Source: Alphaproteobacteria bacterium
GTDB lineage: Bacteria > Pseudomonadota > Alphaproteobacteria > Bin95
Length of the DNA: 64,000 nucleotides
Assembly: GCA_965205265.1 (NCBI GenBank)
Contig: CBDBGH010000003.1
Span: 1,344,001-1,408,000 of the forward strand
Direction: 5' to 3'
Position numbers and translations under genes: made by a program. Below are positions 1,954-60,845 of this stretch, one piece after another (within the stretch, counting starts at the first letter, position 1; each line of letters begins with the position of its first letter). The notes under the pieces were generated by a model that searched no databases, had not been told where the DNA came from, and saw nothing but the letters and a program-made list of their open reading frames with translations.

Positions 1954-3099
1954 ATGAGCAGAGCAACACTCTGGTTGCTGATTCCGGCGGGCCAGCGGGC
2001 GAACGGGGCGTGGATCGACGACACGCTCGTCCGCCGGGCGCGCGAGAAGGGCATGACCGCCCGGCTGACGGAGGCCGGGCGCTTTCCCCGGCAGCGTGTG
2101 GAGGTGCTGCGGGACGGGGACGCCGGCGCGCTCTACTACCGGCGGGGCTGGACCGACGGCCTGCCCATCCTGCCGCCGACGCTCGACCGGGTGGACGCCA
2201 TGCTGCGCGGGTCGGCGCGCGGGCGGAACGAGAGCCTGGGCGAACTCGACCCGCTGAAAGGCGTGGCGACGGTTGAGCGCGTGGCCGCCAACGCCGTCAT
2301 GGCGGGCTGCGCGCCGGAGCATTTCCCGGTCGTCCTTGCCGCCGTCGAGGCGCTGGCCGACCCCGCCTTCAACCTGCGCGGCGTGCAGACCACGGACGAG
2401 AATGTGGCGCCGCTCATCCTGCTGAGCGGGTCTGTGGTCGAGCGGCTGGAGGTGAATGCCGGCTTCGGCATGCTGGGGCCGGGCTGGCAGGCCAATGCCG
2501 CCATCGGCCGGGCGGTCCGGTTCGTCATGAACAATATCGGCGGCGGCTGGCCGGAGGCCGTTTCCTTCGCCGGGCTCGGCCAGCCGGGCCGCTACACCCT
2601 TGTGCTGGCGGAGAACGCCGCCGCCAACCCCTGGGAGCCGCTGCACGAGGAGCTGGGCGGCGAGAACGTGCTGGCGCTCATGCGGGCGGAGACCGCCATC
2701 AATGTGACCGGCGGGCTGGACGACCTTGCGAGCGTAATGGGTTCCGCCGCCTCGACCTTCAACATGGCCTGGGAAGGCAAGGCGGCGGTTGTGATAGCGC
2801 CCTTCGTGGCGCAGGAACTGGCGGGGCAGGGCTGGTCCAAGGCCGATGTGAAAGAAGCGCTCTGGCGGCGGGGGCGGATGCCGCGCGCCGAATTCGAGAA
2901 GCTCTGGCTGCGCACCCGCCTCATCGGCGGCGAACGCTGGCCGGAATGGACGGAGGGAGAAGCCGCCGTGCCGGCCGTCGCGCGGCCGGAGGACATCGTG
3001 CTGATCGTGGCCGGCGGCGACATCCCGATCCCGCAATGCGCCTGGTTCCCGTCCTGGGGCTTCCCGCCCTGCTGCATCGTGAAGGAGATCGCCGCGTGA
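1954..3099 (+). CDS. 'WTDGLP' domain protein, paralogue 2 (function unknown)
   Basis: GWTDGLPILPPT, VAANAVMAGCAPEHFP, ANAAIGRAVR, DIVLIVAGG motifs; Cys-rich C-terminus (PQCAW...PPCC). Confidence 0.85.
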   Translation: MSRATLWLLIPAGQRANGAWIDDTLVRRAREKGMTARLTEAGRFPRQRVEVLRDGDAGALYYRRGWTDGLPILPPTLDRVDAMLRGSARGRNESLGELDPLKGVATVERVAANAVMAGCAPEHFPVVLAAVEALADPAFNLRGVQTTDENVAPLILLSGSVVERLEVNAGFGMLGPGWQANAAIGRAVRFVMNNIGGGWPEAVSFAGLGQPGRYTLVLAENAAANPWEPLHEELGGENVLALMRAETAINVTGGLDDLASVMGSAASTFNMAWEGKAAVVIAPFVAQELAGQGWSKADVKEALWRRGRMPRAEFEKLWLRTRLIGGERWPEWTEGEAAVPAVARPEDIVLIVAGGDIPIPQCAWFPSWGFPPCCIVKEIAA

Positions 3100-21674: not shown

Positions 21675-22076
21675 TCACCGGATGGACAACCGTTGTTCGA
21701 CCCATCGAACGACCGTTTCGGCGATTTCTGTAGCTTGCGAGTATTCTTCGGTGGTTACCGGGCGCACGACACCGGGGTAACGTGTGGCGGAGGCGTAGAG
21801 AGTCAGTTCGGCAGCAGCGCGTATCTCTTCCGGTACCTCTTCTCCTTCCTCTTCCAAAAGGAACAGCAGACGCCCCAGATCGTGCACGTAGGGGAAGTCG
21901 ATGCGTCGTTCGATCAACAATGCCTTGACCGCCTTCTCCGCGGCCTGTTGAGCGAGAAAGCACAGGTCCTCCAGATAGGCTTCGGGAACCCGATTGCGGG
22001 CCAAGACCAGACTGCTTCTCGCCCGGTTCAGCCATTCGCGGGGATCGTCCGGAGAGAAACGCTCAGGAGGCGTCAT
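21675..22076 (-). CDS. HEPN-domain protein (toxin of MNT-HEPN pair)
   Basis: EWLNRARSSL, CFLAQQAAEKAVKA, PYVHDL, YASATRYP. Confidence 0.88.
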   Translation of the reverse strand: MTPPERFSPDDPREWLNRARSSLVLARNRVPEAYLEDLCFLAQQAAEKAVKALLIERRIDFPYVHDLGRLLFLLEEEGEEVPEEIRAAAELTLYASATRYPGVVRPVTTEEYSQATEIAETVVRWVEQRLSIR

Positions 22077-22392
22077 AGAGCACCTGCCCTTCCAGAAGGG
22101 CGGATTTGAAGACCAGGGCATGACTGTCCCTGAACCGTTCCAGGTCCTTCGGCGCTGCAACGACCGCGTCCACTGCGGCGCCCGCTCCGTACAAACTCCG
22201 GTATATGCGCCCCAGCAGGCCGAGAGTATCGGGATCGTCCTTGACGACCAGAATGTCCAGATCGCTGTCGGCGCCCATATCTCCTCTGGCCGCCGATCCG
22301 AAAAGAATTATCTTTTCAGGGGCGGCGGCTTCGACGATGCGTCTGACAATATCGTCGATAGTTTCCCGACTGGTTGTCTGCTGCGCATTCAT
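22063..22392 (-). CDS. minimal nucleotidyltransferase (MNT) antitoxin
   Basis: PEKIILFGSAARGDMGADSDLDILVV (GS-x10-DxD). Confidence 0.9.
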   Translation of the reverse strand: MNAQQTTSRETIDDIVRRIVEAAAPEKIILFGSAARGDMGADSDLDILVVKDDPDTLGLLGRIYRSLYGAGAAVDAVVAAPKDLERFRDSHALVFKSALLEGQVLYDAS

Positions 22393-22432: not shown

Positions 22433-22957
22433 CTATCCGCTGCGGATGGCGGCGAGGATGGGCTGGATGGCGCGCTCGGCGATGTCCGTCAGCTCTTCCG
22501 GCGTGCGGTTCTGGATCGGGTGGTCCACGAACACCACGGCCGGGCGCACGCCCATGGCGTCCGCCTGCACGGCGGCGGCGTCGCGGAACTCCTCGGTCGC
22601 AATGGCGCAGCCGGGCATTCCCAGGCGGTCCAGCTCGATGATGTCATGCAAACTGCACGACGTGCACGAGCCTCAGTCCGCAAGCCCTTCGACAACGATG
22701 TCGCAGCGCTCCACGAGGTCCTGGATGACGCCGCGCGGGGCGGGCTTGGTGTGCGTCGGCTTGGCGAAGCGCATCACCTTCAGGCCCTGGGCGGCCAGCC
22801 GCTCCTCCACCGCGTCGAGGAACTCCACCGAACGCTCCTTGCCGATGGAGAGCAGGCCGATGGTGAGGCCGTCGAGGCTTGCCGGCGGCACGACGGGCTG
22901 CCGGTAGGCCGGCTCCGTCTCCGCCGTCGGGTCCCGCATCGTATAGGGTTCCGTCAT
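22433..22957 (-). CDS. UGSC-family selenoprotein (174 aa, Sec95)
   Basis: ORFs 22673-22957 and 22433-22672 are in frame across a single TGA (22675-22673): EGLAD-U-GSCTSCSLHDIIELDRLGMP. The ATG overlaps the upstream stop. Confidence 0.85.
22643..22661 (-). promoter_or_regulatory. putative bacterial SECIS hairpin
   Basis: GTCGTGCA-GTT-TGCATGAC, starting 11 nt after the TGA. Confidence 0.7.
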
Positions 22958-24402
22958 GGTCCGATCTCCTTCGTTACAGGATCGACTTCTCCGGTCATCC
23001 GCATTCCGGTCCACCCCCCTATGACCGCCGAGAACAGGCCCGCCGGTCCGCCCGCGCGCGCAATCAGGAAGGTGGGTTCGCGGAACTTGTCGATGACTTC
23101 GTGCTCCCGGCCGGGCTCCAGTCCTTCGGCGAGGCCGCCGGCGCCGCGCACGACGTCGCGTCCCGGTCGTTTCAGCGCGGTCCAGAGGGCTTCATGGATT
23201 TCATCGCGGCCCCAGCCCTCGGACTTGTAGATAAGGTAATGCTCCGGCGAGAGCACCAGCAGCGCCCCGCCGAACTCGCAGAGCTTCGGATGGTTCACAT
23301 GCCAGAGATAGTGGGCGAGCGAGGTCGTCAGCTCCTTCGCCGTGCGGCTCTTCTGGTCCACGAAGCCGCTCACCCCCTCGCCGTGGAAGAGGGTGACGGC
23401 GGACCTGCCCGGCGGGATGCCGCGCGCGACCGAGAGCGGCGTCCAGTCCGGGTCGGTTTCGTCCTCCGCGAAGCAGAAGGTGTATTTGCCGGGATTGCCG
23501 AGCGCCGCGCGGTCGATCTCGCCCGGCCGCCCGCCGCCGACATTGCGGACGATGAGCTGGAAGGCCCGGCCGATGGTGGCGTTGGCGCGGTTGCCCTGGC
23601 CGAGCGCGTTCAGGCCCCAGTTCATGCCGATGCGGCGCACGACGGGGCCGTTCACGACGATCACGGGCCCCGCGAAATGCGTCGTACAGAGCAGGCCGTG
23701 CATGGAGAACGCCGGGTCCAGTGCCGCTTCGACCGCTGCCAGCACGGTCGGGAAATATTCGGGCCGGCAGCCGGCCATGACGGCGTTGATGGCCGCCTTC
23801 TCCACCGTGCAGGGGATGAGGTTGGGCGGGATCGCCCCGATAACCTCGCCGGCCGCGCGCGTGGTGCCGGCCAGCATCCGCGCCACGCGCAGGTCGGTCG
23901 GCGGCACGATCGGCAGCCCGTCGGTCCAGCCCCGGTCGAAGGCCGCTTCCATCGGGTCGTCATGGTCCTCGACGGTGATCCGCCGCGCCTTGAGCGGGAT
24001 ATCGCCGAAGCGCACCGCCAGCCTCTCCGGCATCCCGAACTCGACCGACAGCGACCCGCATCCGGGCCGGTTCTCGGGCAGGTCCTCGCCGAGACCGTCG
24101 TTGCCGGTAAGGGCCCGCCATTCGGCCTTGTTCCATCCGATCGCGCGCGCGGCTTCCCTGCCGCCGCTGAAGCGGATCAAGGTCGGCACGGTCTCGATGT
24201 CAAGCCGGTATGAAAGCTCGAGATCGCCGTCGTGACGGGGCGCGGCGCCCTCGGGAAAGAAGGGATCGTCCTGCGTAACCGCAACGGCCCCTTTTGCCGC
24301 CAGTTCCGCGAGGACCGGCGCAACCAGGACGCAGGTCGGACAGTCCCGCTTGACCACCGCCAGCAGGCCGTCGGAAGGAAGGGCATCGCGCCAACCGGTC
24401 AC
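22954..24402 (-). CDS. thioredoxin-like (CPTC) domain + 'WTDGLP' domain fusion, paralogue 3
   Basis: VVKRDCPTC, LDIETVPTLIRF (cis-Pro loop), PGCGS linker, then GWTDGLPIVPPT, AINAVMAGCRPEYFP, ANATIGRA. Confidence 0.85.
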   Translation of the reverse strand: MTGWRDALPSDGLLAVVKRDCPTCVLVAPVLAELAAKGAVAVTQDDPFFPEGAAPRHDGDLELSYRLDIETVPTLIRFSGGREAARAIGWNKAEWRALTGNDGLGEDLPENRPGCGSLSVEFGMPERLAVRFGDIPLKARRITVEDHDDPMEAAFDRGWTDGLPIVPPTDLRVARMLAGTTRAAGEVIGAIPPNLIPCTVEKAAINAVMAGCRPEYFPTVLAAVEAALDPAFSMHGLLCTTHFAGPVIVVNGPVVRRIGMNWGLNALGQGNRANATIGRAFQLIVRNVGGGRPGEIDRAALGNPGKYTFCFAEDETDPDWTPLSVARGIPPGRSAVTLFHGEGVSGFVDQKSRTAKELTTSLAHYLWHVNHPKLCEFGGALLVLSPEHYLIYKSEGWGRDEIHEALWTALKRPGRDVVRGAGGLAEGLEPGREHEVIDKFREPTFLIARAGGPAGLFSAVIGGWTGMRMTGEVDPVTKEIGP

Positions 24403-55197: not shown

Positions 55198-55770
55198 TTA
55201 GCCGCTCTCCGCAGGTTCCTCGACCCAATGACGCCGGAAGACCGGTATCTGGGTCAGGGAAAACGCGAATGTGAGGCCGATCGTGCCGAACAGCTTGTAG
55301 TTGACCCAGAAGTCCGTGGACTGGGTGCGCCAGACGATTTCGTTCAGCGCCGCCATGGCGACGAAGAACAGCCCGAAACGCAAGGTCAGCTTGCGCCATC
55401 CGTCGTCGTCGATCTTCCAGACCGCGCCGAACAGCGGCTTCAGCAGCGGCTTCCCGAAGGCAAGCCCGCCAAGCAATATGGCAGCGATGAACGCCTTCAC
55501 GATGGTCGGCTTCATCTTGATGAAGGTCTCGTCCGCAAGCAGCAGCGTGAGCCCGCCGAACACCGCGACCAGCCCCGCCGTCACCAGCGGCAGGGGCGCC
55601 AGGCGCCGCTCGAAATACCAGGAGACGGCCAGCATGACGGCGGTGGCCGCCATGATCGCCGCCGTCGCCCACATGATGCCGGCGGCGTAATAGGTGACGA
55701 AGAAGACCAGAAGCGGCCCGTAATCGACCGCGAAGCGAAGGCCCTTCGGCGCGGAGTTCGGTTCAGACAT
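55198..55770 (-). CDS. yciB: inner membrane protein YciB (septation protein A)
   Basis: DYGPLLVFF, VFGGLTL, FIKMKPTIV, LNEIVWR, WVNYKLFG. Confidence 0.93.
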   Translation of the reverse strand: MSEPNSAPKGLRFAVDYGPLLVFFVTYYAAGIMWATAAIMAATAVMLAVSWYFERRLAPLPLVTAGLVAVFGGLTLLLADETFIKMKPTIVKAFIAAILLGGLAFGKPLLKPLFGAVWKIDDDGWRKLTLRFGLFFVAMAALNEIVWRTQSTDFWVNYKLFGTIGLTFAFSLTQIPVFRRHWVEEPAESG

Positions 55771-56263
55771 TGTAGATATCCAGGGCGACATCCACCCCGT
55801 CGTTCAGGAAAATGACCGTCTTGGCGGCAATCCGCCACTCGCCGTCCTCAAGGCGGAGCCGGTAGCGGTAGCGCCCGCCATGCACGCGCGCGCCCTTGAG
55901 CGTGGCATATTGATGCACAGTCCAGGACGCGACGGCCTCGACCTCGCCTTCCCCGGCGGAGAGGATCAGCACATTGCCGACCACATGGCAGGAGCGCGGC
56001 ATCGGGAGCGAGGCGTAGCTGTCCCGCGTGCCGATGCGGAACACTCGGTCATCAAGGCCTTCCTTGCCCCGGATGTAGATCAGCGCGAGTTCGGTTTCGG
56101 GGTCTCGGGCAAGCGTTTCCTCGCCGGTCCAAGCGGGCACCCAGAAGGTCACATCTTCGGTGAACAGCGCCAGCCAGTCCTCGAAGCGTCGTTCGTCCAG
56201 AAGCCAGGCATCGAGATGGATAACGCGCTCGACGGCAAGCTGCAGGCCCGGATCGATCTTCAC
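55763..56263 (-). CDS. aromatic-ring-hydroxylating dioxygenase beta subunit
   Basis: GTG at 56263; LLDERRFEDWLALF, FWVPAW, GLDDRVFRI, PRSCHVVGNV, DIYNV. Confidence 0.9.
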   Translation of the reverse strand: MKIDPGLQLAVERVIHLDAWLLDERRFEDWLALFTEDVTFWVPAWTGEETLARDPETELALIYIRGKEGLDDRVFRIGTRDSYASLPMPRSCHVVGNVLILSAGEGEVEAVASWTVHQYATLKGARVHGGRYRYRLRLEDGEWRIAAKTVIFLNDGVDVALDIYNV

Positions 56264-57582
56264 GCGGCAACCCCATCGGCGCGCGCCATAAGGCGACGCC
56301 ATTGACGGTATTGCCCGTGATAGAGCGTTTCGTGGTCCCAGCGCGGGCTGGTGGAAACGGGCCGGATGCCGAGGTCGGTCGCAGCATCGTCGCCGCCTTC
56401 CTGCATGGCGGCAATGCCGCGCGAGAGGTCGTTCCAGCGGTCGAGGCGGCCTTCGCATCCCGCTTGCGTATCCTCCAGCGCAGCCGAGTCGTCCGGCGTG
56501 GCGAGCCCGCTCATCAGGAAGAAATCGCGGAACTTCGACAGCCTCGCCGTTCGCGCGGCGCGGCTCTCCCCCTTCGGCGCGATGCAATAGACCGTAACTT
56601 CCGTGCGGCTCGGTGAAATCGGCCGGATGACCCGGATCTGCGTCGACGACTGGTCCATCAGGAATACGTTCGGGAAGAGCAGCAGGTTGCGCCCCCGCGC
56701 GCACATCCAGGTCCATTTGCTCTCGCCGACAAGCGGCAGGATGCGGGCGCGCGCTTCCCAGAGCGGCGCCGACTCCGGCATGCCGCGCTCGGTCCAGATC
56801 AGGTTGTGGCCGTTGCCGAGGTCGTAGCAGCCGTTGCGGGTCTTGCCCATGAAACGGGTATTGTCGGTGCGCCCGGTCCCGGTTGCTTCGGACTTCAAGT
56901 CGCGGCGCTGGATGGTGGTGACGAAGTTCCGGTGGACGGTCGAGACATGGTAGCCGTCCACGCCGTTTTCGGTCTGGAGCTTCCAATTGCCGTCCACGAC
57001 ATAGCTCGCCTGGCCCGGAACGATTTCCATGCCGTCCGGCGACTGGTCGGCGACGAGATCGATGACGGGAAGAGCCTCGCCCAGATGCTCGGCGAGCGGC
57101 GGCGCATCGGGATTGAGCGAGCCGAAGACGAAGCCCTTGTAGCTTTCCACCAGCGGCACTGTCTTGAGGCCGAAATCGGCGCGCGATGCGCCGGGCGGCA
57201 ATGCCGAACTGCGCTCGTCCTTGATTTTCGTGCAGGCGCCGAAGGTGTCGTAGCACCAGCCGTGATAGCGGCACACGAACGTGGTCGCCTTGCCCTGCCG
57301 GGTGGGCGTCAGACGGGCGCCGCGATGGGCGCAGGCGTTCAGCATGGCGCCGATGGTGCCGTCGGCCCGCCGGTTGACGATCACCGGCTGCCGGCCCATC
57401 CGGACGGCGAGGTAGTCGCCGGACTCCGGGATCTGGCTCTCATGCGCGAGATAGATCCAGTTGCCCTCGAAGATCGTCTCGATCTCGGCGGCGAAAACCT
57501 CGGGGTCCGTATAGATGGCCCGGTCCACCCTGAAGACGCCCTCGCCGGCGCGGTCGTCCACGAGCGATGCAAAGGCGCTCAT
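56260..57582 (-). CDS. Rieske dioxygenase alpha subunit (benzoate/anthranilate 1,2-dioxygenase-like)
   Basis: NACAHRG...CRYHGW Rieske motif; NWKLQTENGVDGYHVSTVH; SGLATPDD. Confidence 0.92.
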   Translation of the reverse strand: MSAFASLVDDRAGEGVFRVDRAIYTDPEVFAAEIETIFEGNWIYLAHESQIPESGDYLAVRMGRQPVIVNRRADGTIGAMLNACAHRGARLTPTRQGKATTFVCRYHGWCYDTFGACTKIKDERSSALPPGASRADFGLKTVPLVESYKGFVFGSLNPDAPPLAEHLGEALPVIDLVADQSPDGMEIVPGQASYVVDGNWKLQTENGVDGYHVSTVHRNFVTTIQRRDLKSEATGTGRTDNTRFMGKTRNGCYDLGNGHNLIWTERGMPESAPLWEARARILPLVGESKWTWMCARGRNLLLFPNVFLMDQSSTQIRVIRPISPSRTEVTVYCIAPKGESRAARTARLSKFRDFFLMSGLATPDDSAALEDTQAGCEGRLDRWNDLSRGIAAMQEGGDDAATDLGIRPVSTSPRWDHETLYHGQYRQWRRLMARADGVAA

Positions 57583-57613: not shown

Positions 57614-59260
57614 CTAATCCCGGATCGCCTCGGTGACGGAGAGGGTGCTGCCGAAGGACGGGATGACGCAGGAGTGGCGTCCCGCCCCGCCGGCGACCAT
57701 GACCATGAGCTGGTCCCGCTCGCTCACGATGCGCACGCCGTCCCTGCCGTCCGGGCCGACGAAACGCTCCGGCACCTGTTGGCCGTAAAGCGCCATCTGC
57801 GCCTTGCCGATATGCCAGCGCGGGATGATCGCGCGCTCGATGATGAAGCGCTCGACATCCTCTTTCGACCAGCCCTCGCGCGCGATCACCTCGGCATGTT
57901 CCGGGCCGATCACCACGAGATATTCGCCGTGGAAATAGGAGTTGTTGCAGCCGGGCGTGGCCATGGTGCCGCAGATCGTCAGCAGAACGTCTTCGGCCGT
58001 TTCGCTGTAGTGGTCGTTGACATTGTGCGGGCCCTCGACGCCGCAGAGGGTGACCGCGTTCTCCTCCGCCCCGAAGCCCCGTTCGGCATGGAAGGGCGCC
58101 CAGGGATTGGCCTCGCCATTTTCCGCGAAGCAGTAGCTGTATTTGGCGGGTGTGCCCATCGTCGCGCGGTCGAGCACGCTGGGCTGCGCGCCGCCGATAT
58201 TGGTCAGCACGAGGCGGACCGCGCGCCCGATCGCGGCATTGGCGTGGACGCCCTGGCCCATGCAATTGGTGCCCGATGCGATGTCGAGCTCGTCCGTGAT
58301 CGGCCCGTGCACGACGGTCAAGAGGCCGCAGGGATGGGTCGTGGACTGGAGCGCCTTCAGGTTCAGCCGCTCGGCGGTCATGGCCCGGGTCGCGGCGAGG
58401 ATGACCGGCATCATGGCCGGCGTCGCCCCGGCCATCACGGCATTGGCGGCAACCTTGCCGACCGTCGCGAGGCCGAGGCGCGGCTCGACCGGGCCGATTT
58501 CCTCGCCCGGGTCGCGCCCATCCAGCATGGCTTCCCAGCGGTCGGGCGTCGGCGGAACGAAGGGCAGGCCGTCGGTCCAGCCGCGCTGGTAGAAGACGCG
58601 GTTCAGTGCCTCGGGCGAGTCGGGGCCGGAAATCCGCTCCGGCGCGCCGGGCGCGTTGAAGTCGCCCTCGAACAGCGAGCGGTAGCGCATCCGGCCCCGC
58701 TTCGGCAGGGGACGGTTGCGGCATTCCTCCGCGAGCGCCGCCGCATCCGCCTCCAGCATGTGGACGATCTGGTCTATCGCCTCGTCGGCGATCTCCGAAA
58801 CGCCGGGAGGCGGCAGTTTCGCCACCGGATGCGGTACGACTGCAATCGGCAGGCCGGCCATGCCGAGGCACTCGGCCTCCGCCTTGCCGAGAGCGAAGAA
58901 CTCGTCCGTACAGGTAACGGCGACCGGAATGCCGCGCTCTTCGAGCTTGATCGCGTCATGGATACACCACGACGTGCAGGAGCCTCAGTCGCCGAAGGCG
59001 GCGGCAACGGCGTGGACGCGGTCGAGCCACTGCTGCGAGAAATTGGCGGGCTCGCTCGCGATCTTCTGGAAGAGCTCGAACTCCAGATGCGGGTAACGCG
59101 CCTTCAGCCGGTGCGACAGCTCTTCCAGGTAAAGGTCTGCATTCGCCTTGAGATTCGAGAACAGGCCAACGACCTCTACGTCTTCCAGGGACCGCCGCGG
59201 CGCCAGCGCGCCGCTATTGCGCTGGTAGATGCCGCAAGGATTGATAAGCTCCTGTGCCAT
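57614..59260 (-). CDS. UGSC selenoprotein domain + 'WTDGLP' domain fusion (548 aa, Sec92), paralogue 4
   Basis: ATG at 59260; single in-frame TGA at 58987-58985: [26 protein letters not shown]. The frame continues into ORF 57614-58861 (GWTDGLPFVPPT). Confidence 0.85.
58955..58973 (-). promoter_or_regulatory. putative bacterial SECIS hairpin
   Basis: GTCGTGG-TGTAT-CCATGAC, starting 11 nt after the TGA. Confidence 0.7.
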
Positions 59261-59300: not shown

Positions 59301-60059
59301 ATGGGACGCCTGGAAGGCAAGACCGCGATCATCACCGGCGCCGGGTCCGGGATCGCCAGGGCAGCCACCGGAATCTTCATTCGCGAGGGCGCGAAGGTGA
59401 TGGTGGCGGAAATCGACGAGGCGGCGGGCGCCGCAGCGGCGGCGGAGACGGGCGCCGCGTTCCACCGCACCGATGTGACGGACGACGCCTCGGCGGCCGC
59501 CTGCGCGGCGGCGGCGATGGCCGAGTTCGGGCGCATCGACATCCTGTTCAACTGCGCCGGCGGGTCGGTGATCGAGGACACGAAAATCGACACGGTCGAT
59601 CTCGGCGTCTGGGACCGCACCATCCCGCTCGACCTCAAGGGGCCCATGCTGATGTGCCGCCACGTCGTGCCGCACATGGTTGCGGGCGGCGGCGGCGCCG
59701 TCGTCAATGTCTCTTCCGTGGTGGCGCTCCGGGGCAACCATCCCGCGCACATCTATTCGGCGGCGAAAGGCGGGCTGATTTCCTTCACGCGCTCGCTCGC
59801 CGGCTCCTATTCGGACCAGGACGTACGCGCCAATGTCATCTGCCCCGGCCTCATCCTGACCGAGCGCGTCCGCGCCCGTTACCGCCAGCCGAACGAGGAG
59901 CGCCCGCGCGAAGGCTCGATCGGCACCTTCGAGCAATATCCGTTCGGCGTCGGCCAGCCGGAGGACATCGCCAATGTCGCGCTTTTCCTCGCTTCGGACG
60001 AGGCGCGCATGGTGAACGGCGCGGTCATCCCGGCAGAGGGCGGGATTTCCCACTATTGA
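59301..60059 (+). CDS. SDR-family oxidoreductase
   Basis: TGAGSGIA, FNCAG, NVSS, YSAAK. Confidence 0.93.
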   Translation: MGRLEGKTAIITGAGSGIARAATGIFIREGAKVMVAEIDEAAGAAAAAETGAAFHRTDVTDDASAAACAAAAMAEFGRIDILFNCAGGSVIEDTKIDTVDLGVWDRTIPLDLKGPMLMCRHVVPHMVAGGGGAVVNVSSVVALRGNHPAHIYSAAKGGLISFTRSLAGSYSDQDVRANVICPGLILTERVRARYRQPNEERPREGSIGTFEQYPFGVGQPEDIANVALFLASDEARMVNGAVIPAEGGISHY

Positions 60060-60089
60060 CGGACGGCGGCAGCGAGAGGAGTGCAGGAT

Positions 60090-60845
60090 ATGGGACGCTT
60101 GGAAGGCAAGATCGCGGTGATTACCGGCGCGGGAACCGGAATCGCCAAAGCGGCCACCGGACTCTTCATTCGCGAGGGCGCGAATGTGATGGTGGCGGAA
60201 ATCGACGAGGCGGCCGGGTCCGCGACGGCGGCGGAGACCGGTGCTTCCTTCCACCGCACCGATGTCACCGACGACGCCTCGGCGGCGGCCTGCGCGGCAG
60301 CGGCGATGGCGGAGTTCGGGCGCATCGACATCCTGTTCAACTGCGCCGGCGGCTCGGTCCCGGAGGACGGCAAGATCGATGAAGTCGATCTCGCTGTCTG
60401 GGACCGCACGATCCCGCTCGATTTGAAGGGCCCGATGCTGATGTGCCGCCATGTCGTGCCGCAGATGATCGCGGGCGGCGGCGGCGCGGTCATCAACATT
60501 TCGTCCGTCGCGGCGCTGCGCGGCTTCGTTCCCAGCCACGTCTATTCGGCGGCGAAAGGCGGTCTGATTTCCTTCACCCGCTCGCTCGCCGGCTCCTATT
60601 CCGACCAGGGCGTGCGCGCCAATGTCATCTGTCCCGGCCTCATCCTGACCGGGCGGATACTGGCGCGCCTGCCGCCCGACCGGGAGCGCGTGAACGAAGG
60701 GCCGTTCGCCGTCTTCAACCGGTATCCCTTCAGCGTCGGGCAGCCGGAGGACATCGCCAATATCGGGCTCTTCCTGGCCTCGGACGAGTCCCGGATGGTC
60801 AACGGCGCGGTCATCCCGGCGGAAGGCGGCGTTTCCCACTACTGA
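60090..60845 (+). CDS. SDR-family oxidoreductase (tandem duplicate)
   Basis: TGAGTGIA, FNCAG, NISS, YSAAK; long stretches identical to the upstream SDR. Confidence 0.93.
   Translation: MGRLEGKIAVITGAGTGIAKAATGLFIREGANVMVAEIDEAAGSATAAETGASFHRTDVTDDASAAACAAAAMAEFGRIDILFNCAGGSVPEDGKIDEVDLAVWDRTIPLDLKGPMLMCRHVVPQMIAGGGGAVINISSVAALRGFVPSHVYSAAKGGLISFTRSLAGSYSDQGVRANVICPGLILTGRILARLPPDRERVNEGPFAVFNRYPFSVGQPEDIANIGLFLASDESRMVNGAVIPAEGGVSHY

Follow-up and report, generated by a model that had tools for sequence, protein, structure and literature searches.

The stretch of DNA analyzed here, referred to as the window, comprises 64,000 nucleotides from an Alphaproteobacteria bacterium (GenBank assembly GCA_965205265.1, contig CBDBGH010000003.1, positions 1,344,001 to 1,408,000). 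Its minus strand carries a gene in which a TGA codon interrupts an otherwise open frame. When TGA was translated as selenocysteine (Sec, U), a single frame of 548 codons was obtained, running from the ATG at 59260 to the TAG at 57616..57614, with the TGA at 58987..58985 (codon 92) as the sole in-frame stop before the TAG. The codons surrounding it, GGC GAC TGA GGC TCC TGC ACG TCG TGG TGT, specify the protein motif G-D-U-G-S-C, of which D-U-G-S-C (residues 91 to 95) aligns with DCGSC of homologs that carry cysteine. Open reading frame (ORF) calling with translation table 11 yields one frame that ends at the TGA (91 residues) and a separate 415-aa ORF that starts at the ATG at 58861, leaving 41 codons, the first at 58984, between the TGA and the called start. 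With a probability of about 0.92, the locus is one Sec-containing gene that gene callers have split in two at the UGA, a read-through fusion between a domain of the UGSC selenoprotein family and a second domain, here termed WTDGLP; the insertion of Sec itself is predicted from sequence. The features of this gene and of its relatives and neighbors in the window are listed in Table 1.

Table 1. Features of the UGSC::WTDGLP gene and of related or neighboring genes (positions are those of the window unless indicated)
Feature	Position	Strand	Basis
Whole gene, UGSC::WTDGLP fusion selenoprotein (predicted Sec92)	57614..59260	-	TGA=U translation, orthologs, AlphaFold2 model
In-frame TGA (codon 92), predicted to encode the Sec of U-G-S-C	58985..58987	-	Ortholog conservation; Cys at this column in P0008 and 13 others of the 20 aligned full-length homologs
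Putative SECIS-type hairpin CGUCGUGG-UGUAU-CCAUGACG	58954..58974	-	Minimum-energy fold, low pS, covariation
UGSC domain, residues 5-170	58751..59248	-	PF24696, NF041046
WTDGLP ('Unknown_1') domain, approximately residues 209-548	57617..58636	-	Homolog alignment; no Pfam or NCBIfam match
Internal Met134, ATG taken as start by table 11 calling (415-aa call)	58859..58861	-	ORF calls; pN/pS of 0.006 upstream
Second fused UGSC::WTDGLP gene, CUGSCTPAVLR subtype, C-terminal part	1-1335, extending upstream to G000:C3:1343611	+	PF24696 scan
Eighth WTDGLP copy	2131-3018	+	tblastn
Split module, gene 1: CPTC (thioredoxin-like) N terminus plus WTDGLP, 482 aa	22954..24402	-	tblastn, E of 1e-49 to the C-terminal domain of the 548-aa protein
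Split module, gene 2: UGSC selenoprotein as a separate gene (TGA, 22673-22675)	22433..22957	-	PF24696, 126.1 bits, one TGA
Rieske oxygenase alpha and beta genes	55763-57582	-	
First SDR gene	59301-60059	+	
Second SDR gene	60081-60845	+	

With Cys put in place of Sec, residues 5 to 170 match the Pfam model PF24696 (UGSC) with 140.3 bits against a cutoff of 25, and residues 28 to 169 match the NCBIfam model NF041046, "UGSC family (seleno)protein," with 127.4 bits, barely exceeding the cutoff of 125. Both models align unbroken through the TGA position. Seven matches to PF24696 above the cutoff were identified in the genome, and all seven contain exactly one in-frame TGA. The genome also encodes selA (531.5 bits), selB (435.2 bits) and selD (277.1 bits), all far above their curated cutoffs, with selA and selB adjoining each other approximately 13 kb before the window, and using ARAGORN a tRNA-SeC with anticodon tca was found. 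The gene is a UGSC-family selenoprotein gene, the Sec machinery of its genome is complete, and the ribosome would decode UGA-92 as Sec via this SelA/SelB/SelD/tRNA-Sec set together with a hairpin of the selenocysteine insertion sequence (SECIS) type.

Orthologs were sought in 41 genomes, consisting of the source genome (G000) and 40 relatives. Full-length matches containing a single TGA were identified in the source genome, in 14 of the 16 same-genus genomes (88 to 97% identity) and in one genome from another family (G030; 56% identity), while the two remaining same-genus genomes gave weaker, partial matches only. The TGA lies at codon 92 in 16 of 16 full-length sequences, down to 56% identity. 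To compare selection along the gene, the copy in the window was set against 12 orthologs in ungapped pairs, and the ratio of nonsynonymous to synonymous differences (pN/pS) was calculated from the summed differences; L032 and L034 (length differences) and L035 (divergence) were excluded from the sum. The ratio was 0.116 for codons 1 to 91, before the TGA, and 0.099 for codons 134 to 548, which form the called ORF. Codons 93 to 133, which separate the TGA from the called ATG, gave 0.006, and thus a stretch treated as noncoding by gene callers is under the strongest constraint within the gene.

A word-indexed search listed 120 matches, among which only one protein (P0008; 554 aa) was full length, with 55% identity over 100% of the query. 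In P0008, Cys replaces Sec and the chain is continuous over the junction. The remaining 119 listed matches, of 366 to 468 aa, cover only 66 to 81% of the query and therefore start past the TGA. Among the public gene calls listed for near-identical orthologs, all start past the TGA and are 415 to 436 aa in length, two fragments excepted, and the three named entries among those listed for the closest orthologs are "hypothetical protein." An exhaustive search of representative sequences identified 5435 proteins at an E value of ≤1e-3, with many fused forms of 530 to 570 aa. Twenty full-length fused homologs were aligned to the query and 12 of them carry CxxC, in a sample where Sec forms are underrepresented because they are cut short by gene callers.

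Two other explanations of the TGA were weighed against a read-through fusion. That the locus holds two separate genes as in the public calls, a 91-residue ORF and a 415-residue protein from the ATG at 58861, is very improbable: table 11 calling gives exactly that split and the listed calls of close orthologs (415 to 436 aa) agree with it, but the 41 codons that it would leave untranslated are those with a pN/pS of 0.006, the UGSC model requires both sides of the TGA, the Cys homologs are unbroken over the TGA site, and the frame is maintained in all 16 orthologs. Inactivation of the gene by a nonsense mutation would account for the in-frame stop, yet a pseudogene is the least credible explanation of all, as the TGA recurs in seven of seven paralogs, in all 16 orthologs and in 73 of the 82 UGSC domains from loci of other species that are described below. 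Moreover, both halves are under purifying selection, the relaxation expected downstream of the TGA is absent, and the Sec machinery is present.

The original prediction of a hidden 548-aa selenoprotein with Sec92, whose frame continues for 41 codons into the ORF annotated at 57614-58861, was therefore right in the TGA context and in all of its coordinates and counts, and the listed public calls bear out that the protein has been hidden. Its assignment of a UGSC domain fused to WTDGLP agrees with the PF24696 match through the TGA and with the motifs found in the C-terminal domain, and the alignment with Cys homologs that it suggested produced P0008 and the 12 CxxC forms. It had also argued against a nonsense mutation from a shared TGA context in a divergent paralog. 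This argument holds; the second copy reads GAC TGA GGC TCG TGC ACG TCG TGC (TGA at 22675..22673, minus strand), and the UGSC domains of the 548-aa gene and the 22.4-kb copy are 28% identical.

Directly past the TGA, synonymous differences almost disappear. The value of pS in the 12 codons from 93 to 104 is 0.033, compared with 0.39 in the upstream flank (codons 61 to 91) and 0.41 in the downstream flank (codons 105 to 133), a collapse that points to constraint at the RNA level. In the minimum-energy fold, the hairpin CGUCGUGG-UGUAU-CCAUGACG begins 10 nt past the UGA, and the paralog at 22.6 kb has a hairpin, GUCGUGCA-GUU-UGCAUGAC, at the equivalent position. Covariation was assessed in a gap-free alignment of the 48 nt from the TGA of 77 distinct UGSC genes, of which 4 belong to this genome and 73 to other species, and the helix scored was that of columns 15 to 22 paired with columns 26 to 33. 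Of the 616 helix cells, 86.7% were paired, compared with 18 to 50% when the partner was shifted by 1 to 3 columns; approximately nine genes of other subtypes (e.g., CUGSCTPAVLR), which fold otherwise, were counted as unpaired. Both partners were altered in 35 cells; none of 500 shuffles gave that many. At pair 21-27, 48 genes have G-C and 23 have C-G, and these swaps accompany amino acid changes (W..I/V/F versus C..L/V); thus, peptide and helix covary. The hairpin is a putative SECIS-type element. Like the bacterial SECIS of the Escherichia coli fdhF type, it lies within the coding region a few nucleotides past the UGA, and its apical loop contains G and U. It differs from that type in its short stem (8 bp) and in matching no Rfam model, and its binding by SelB is a prediction.

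The C-terminal domain contains the motifs GWTDGLPFVPPT, NAVMAG, TTHP, NAAIGRA, AENG, PEHA and AGGAGRHS, corresponding to the WTDGLP family patterns GWTDGLPxVPPT, NAVMAG, TTHP, NAxIGRA, AEN, PEHA and VAGGxGxHS. It has no Pfam or NCBIfam match, and a Pfam search at an E value of ≤10 with this domain and with the 482-aa paralog returned nothing but a chance-level TraF match (E = 0.28). Residues G278, G319, R346 and E380 are invariant across 144 sequences of the domain. Using tblastn, eight WTDGLP copies were found in the genome. The seven UGSC loci, read through their TGAs, comprise three fused genes with UGSC at the N terminus (the gene described here, one straddling the window start and one at C3:3.64 Mb) and four split loci in which a WTDGLP gene lies immediately upstream of a UGSC gene. 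The split loci include the pair at 22433-24402, where the ATG of the UGSC gene overlaps the stop codon of the preceding gene (ATGA). In the fused gene at the window start, the TGA is located 87 nt before the first base of the window, and therefore only its WTDGLP domain is visible there. This gene is followed by the eighth WTDGLP copy, which lacks its own UGSC gene; a tandem layout of UGSC, WTDGLP and a second, shorter WTDGLP was also found in 8 of 80 loci from other species.

These 80 loci were kept out of at least 546 relatives found by scanning a single genome of each species, and they were searched with hidden Markov models built from our own alignments. They span Proteobacteria, Chloroflexota, Rokubacteria, Binatia, Acidobacteriota, Actinomycetota, one Bacillus-group genome and three archaeal lineages. 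A UGSC domain lies within 300 nt of WTDGLP on the same strand in 69 of the 80 loci, as a candidate fusion (same frame, no TAA or TAG between) in 19 and as a separate gene in 50. In a further four loci the distance is 0.7 to 1.4 kb, and in seven, two of which are at the locus end, no UGSC was found near WTDGLP. Both gene orders, UGSC first and WTDGLP first, were seen. The 80 loci contain 82 UGSC domains, with TGA at the motif in 73, Cys in four, neither in one and the column uncovered in four. In these loci from many phyla, WTDGLP is almost always paired with UGSC, and it is read as the obligate partner of UGSC. The original prediction had taken the fusion as Rosetta-stone evidence that the two genes at 22.4 to 24.4 kb form one functional unit, and this is upheld by the seven UGSC genes of the genome, which without exception are either fused to a WTDGLP gene or located directly behind one, and by the 69 loci from other species. 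Two remoter fused relatives, L036 (G035:C14) and L037 (G018:C12), with 36 to 38% identity, each have two in-frame TGAs within the match.

A full-length AlphaFold2 model built from an alignment of 144 rows is compact and has two domains, with a mean pLDDT of 95.9 and a pTM of 0.94. The UGSC domain is modeled as a three-layer alpha/beta fold in which U92 follows strand 84-90 and stands at the N terminus of helix 93-108. Comparison of the full model against the PDB using Foldseek revealed a single match at an E value of ≤0.001 (7xky_A; E = 3.8e-4; TM of 0.18 to 0.28). The other matches, with E values of approximately 2e-3 to 6e-3, are flavodoxin-like alpha/beta proteins (azoreductases, flavodoxin-like domains and lumazine synthase) and presumably reflect the N-terminal domain, the output being without aligned ranges. 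No thioredoxin-fold protein is among the matches shown for the full model; the N-terminal domain was not searched alone. The C-terminal domain folded alone has a pLDDT of 92.1 and gave no Foldseek match at an E value of ≤0.001 (best E, 1.6e-3; TM of 0.15 to 0.32). Using VIA-align, its best Z score against 48,161 chains was 5.4, under the stated noise level of the tool (7 to 8), with 7xky_A at a Z score of 4.4 and a root mean square deviation of 5.6 over 183 residues. Matches to fumarate hydratase, Toblerone and chorismate mutase-like folds were weak and below noise. Kinship with the Fe-S hydro-lyases (class I fumarate hydratase and L-serine dehydratase) or the Toblerone fold would be expected to show in conserved cluster-binding cysteines, and the 144 WTDGLP sequences have no invariant Cys. 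Profile searches of PDB sequences gave no matches for UGSC at an E value of ≤10 and one chance match for WTDGLP (E = 0.7). These searches thus recognized no solved relative of WTDGLP, and its fold is not claimed as new.

Complex prediction was performed with a Cys-type split UGSC/WTDGLP pair from a haloarchaeal locus (L045) and our own alignments, this pair being chosen because the predictor accepts table 11 proteins. The median ipSAE of three runs was 0.83, while the best of three controls reached 0.00. Among benchmark cases, 116 of 157 solved complexes attain a value of 0.83, as do 2 of 215 mismatched pairs, rates that are approximate with our own alignments. At least 62% of contacts agree between runs, and the pLDDT of the partner is at least 82. 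The confident contacts involve, on the UGSC side, the N-terminal strand (residues 11 to 25) and residue 106, adjacent to the Sec-equivalent Cys105, and on the partner side the VPPT, NAVMAG and RL..N.GG motifs. The prediction supports, but does not demonstrate, binding of the split halves to each other.

These findings lead to a proposed function for which the odds are about even, namely, that UGSC/WTDGLP is a selenol/thiol redox enzyme with its substrate pocket in WTDGLP. The two domains would form one enzyme. WTDGLP would provide the pocket with the conserved residues D230, T308, N341, R346, D364, E380 and H455, the U92/C95 selenenylsulfide would carry out the redox chemistry, and a thioredoxin-type system would probably re-reduce it. 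A UxxC motif at a helix N terminus is classic redox geometry, and U92-G-S-C95 sits at such a position. With an equal chance of being right or wrong, UGSC plus WTDGLP may constitute an undescribed two-part class of selenoenzyme, with a catalytic domain lacking a solved relative and many substrate-specific paralogs (seven modules here, three of them fused). If so, the fused copy with its high-confidence model is a handy single-chain entry to UGSC/WTDGLP chemistry.

It is also possible, though distinctly less likely than a redox enzyme, that the Sec fusion is real and the UGSC domain is not the catalytic redox center, acting for a WTDGLP enzyme either as a lid with a structural or regulatory role or as a carrier of selenium, sulfur or metal. 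Six of the 20 full-length homologs keep a UGSC domain without both redox residues, and the N-terminal strand of UGSC, not the Sec loop alone, makes most of the predicted contacts. Neighboring genes were surveyed with a Pfam scan of 115 of 227 same-strand ORFs, which came from 40 of the 80 loci, and no conserved reductant partner was found among them, with Pyr_redox_2 present in two loci only. A lid or carrier is at odds, however, with the retention of costly Sec in 73 of 82 domains, with the placement of UxxC at a helix N terminus and with the presence of the residue adjoining the Sec position at the predicted interface, and some partners bear CPTC thioredoxin-like extensions.

A number of observations weigh against the redox enzyme and the SECIS-type hairpin. 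In addition to the six homologs without either redox residue, two of the 20 retain the first Cys alone, and the partner domain can therefore occur without the UxxC couple. The 144 WTDGLP sequences have no invariant Cys, and no common pathway emerged among the scanned neighbors. The complex was tested on an archaeal Cys pair with our own alignments and not on proteins of the source genome. The 71-nt stretch that folds into the hairpin is not unusually stable (z of -1.02; 30 of 200 shuffles fold equally well); the paralog at 22.6 kb has a z of -2.22. The helix overlaps a conserved coding motif, so that its pairing signal is partly shared with protein constraint, and its structure was derived from the same 77 sequences on which pairing was then counted. 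The Rfam search of the hairpin gave no family match and returned only a chance microRNA entry. Lastly, Sec insertion and enzymatic activity are both predictions.

The family and the fusion are already in print, of which the original prediction was unaware. In the Global Ocean Sampling (GOS) study, the UGSC-containing protein is among the major selenoprotein families, with 255 Sec and 21 Cys sequences, a UxxC motif and no domain hit, a thioredoxin fold is suggested for it, and its fusion with a conserved domain, "Unknown_1," is reported in text section 9 and Figure S1A (Zhang and Gladyshev 2008, PLoS Genet, PMC2398784). Reads in Dataset S1 of that study continue from UGSC into GWTDGLP(I/V)VPPT...NGVMAGCRPEYMP in one chain, with the same domain order and the same WTDGLP and NGVMAGC motifs as here; therefore, the fusion has been in print since 2008. 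From these Dataset S1 reads, "Unknown_1" is probably WTDGLP. The fused reads examined are of the CUGSCTPAVLR subtype, like the paralog at the window start and unlike the 548-aa gene. A 2022 review lists the UGSC family without a function (PMC9312934), and a 2026 review, citing NF041046, counts it among families with largely uncharacterized functions (PMC13188914). No literature on a UGSC mechanism or partner was found beyond the GOS paper and these reviews, and every cluster returned by an ESM Atlas search with a stand-alone homolog belonged to that family and had either no name or an automatic one.

The gene shares with the described UGSC family the U-G-S-C motif, the alternation of Sec and Cys, and scores above the cutoff of both models. 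Most described members are stand-alone proteins of approximately 150 to 170 aa, whereas here UGSC forms the N-terminal domain of a chain of 548 residues. The gene adds one more member to a selenoprotein family that is already known, its fused architecture is known as well, and nothing about it is categorically new. UGSC ranks among the most common selenoproteins of environmental bacteria, and this locus is a clean single-chain example, with complete Sec machinery, seven paralogous modules and a very confident model, that offers a practical test construct. It also exemplifies how the public calls listed for this ortholog group start past the UGA.

The glycine/sarcosine/betaine and D-proline reductases (GrdB/PrdB; PF07355) likewise combine a UxxC motif with a larger partner subunit, an analogy of working principle only. 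Grd selenoprotein B works with a second, larger subunit and receives electrons from thioredoxin. A closer relation was rejected, as three UGSC domains had no GRDB match at an E value of ≤10 and the GRDB model matches three other places in the genome, none of which is among the seven UGSC loci. PrdB is listed as a UxxC protein in Table 2 of the GOS study (PMC2398784). Separately, a 178-aa ORF without an internal stop (L120) at G000:C3:1193984-1194199, minus strand, was found to match the C-terminal part of the GRDB model with 32.4 bits, over the cutoff.

Among the scanned neighbors in the 40 loci, the families found were DUF6282 (five loci), TctC (four), short-chain dehydrogenases/reductases (SDR; three), and Pyr_redox_2 (thioredoxin reductase-like), PrpD, enoyl-CoA hydratase and amidohydrolase_2 (two each). 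In the window, the Rieske oxygenase genes start 30 nt past the stop codon of the selenoprotein gene. An operon link was rejected for lack of conservation. The Rieske genes lie approximately 1 kb further off in 11 same-genus loci, and near the distant orthologs L035, L040 and L041 none was found. In the one same-genus locus inspected (L021:513-1493), a convergent 326-aa ORF, luciferase-like by eye, fills the gap, and the source genome seems to have lost this ORF. Past the UGSC gene at 22.4 kb, two small overlapping ORFs (21675-22392, minus strand) resemble by eye a nucleotidyltransferase/HEPN toxin-antitoxin pair. On the other side of the selenoprotein gene, two SDR genes in tandem, which share 82% identity, are transcribed divergently from it, with approximately 40 nt between the start codons, and this SDR arrangement is kept within the genus.

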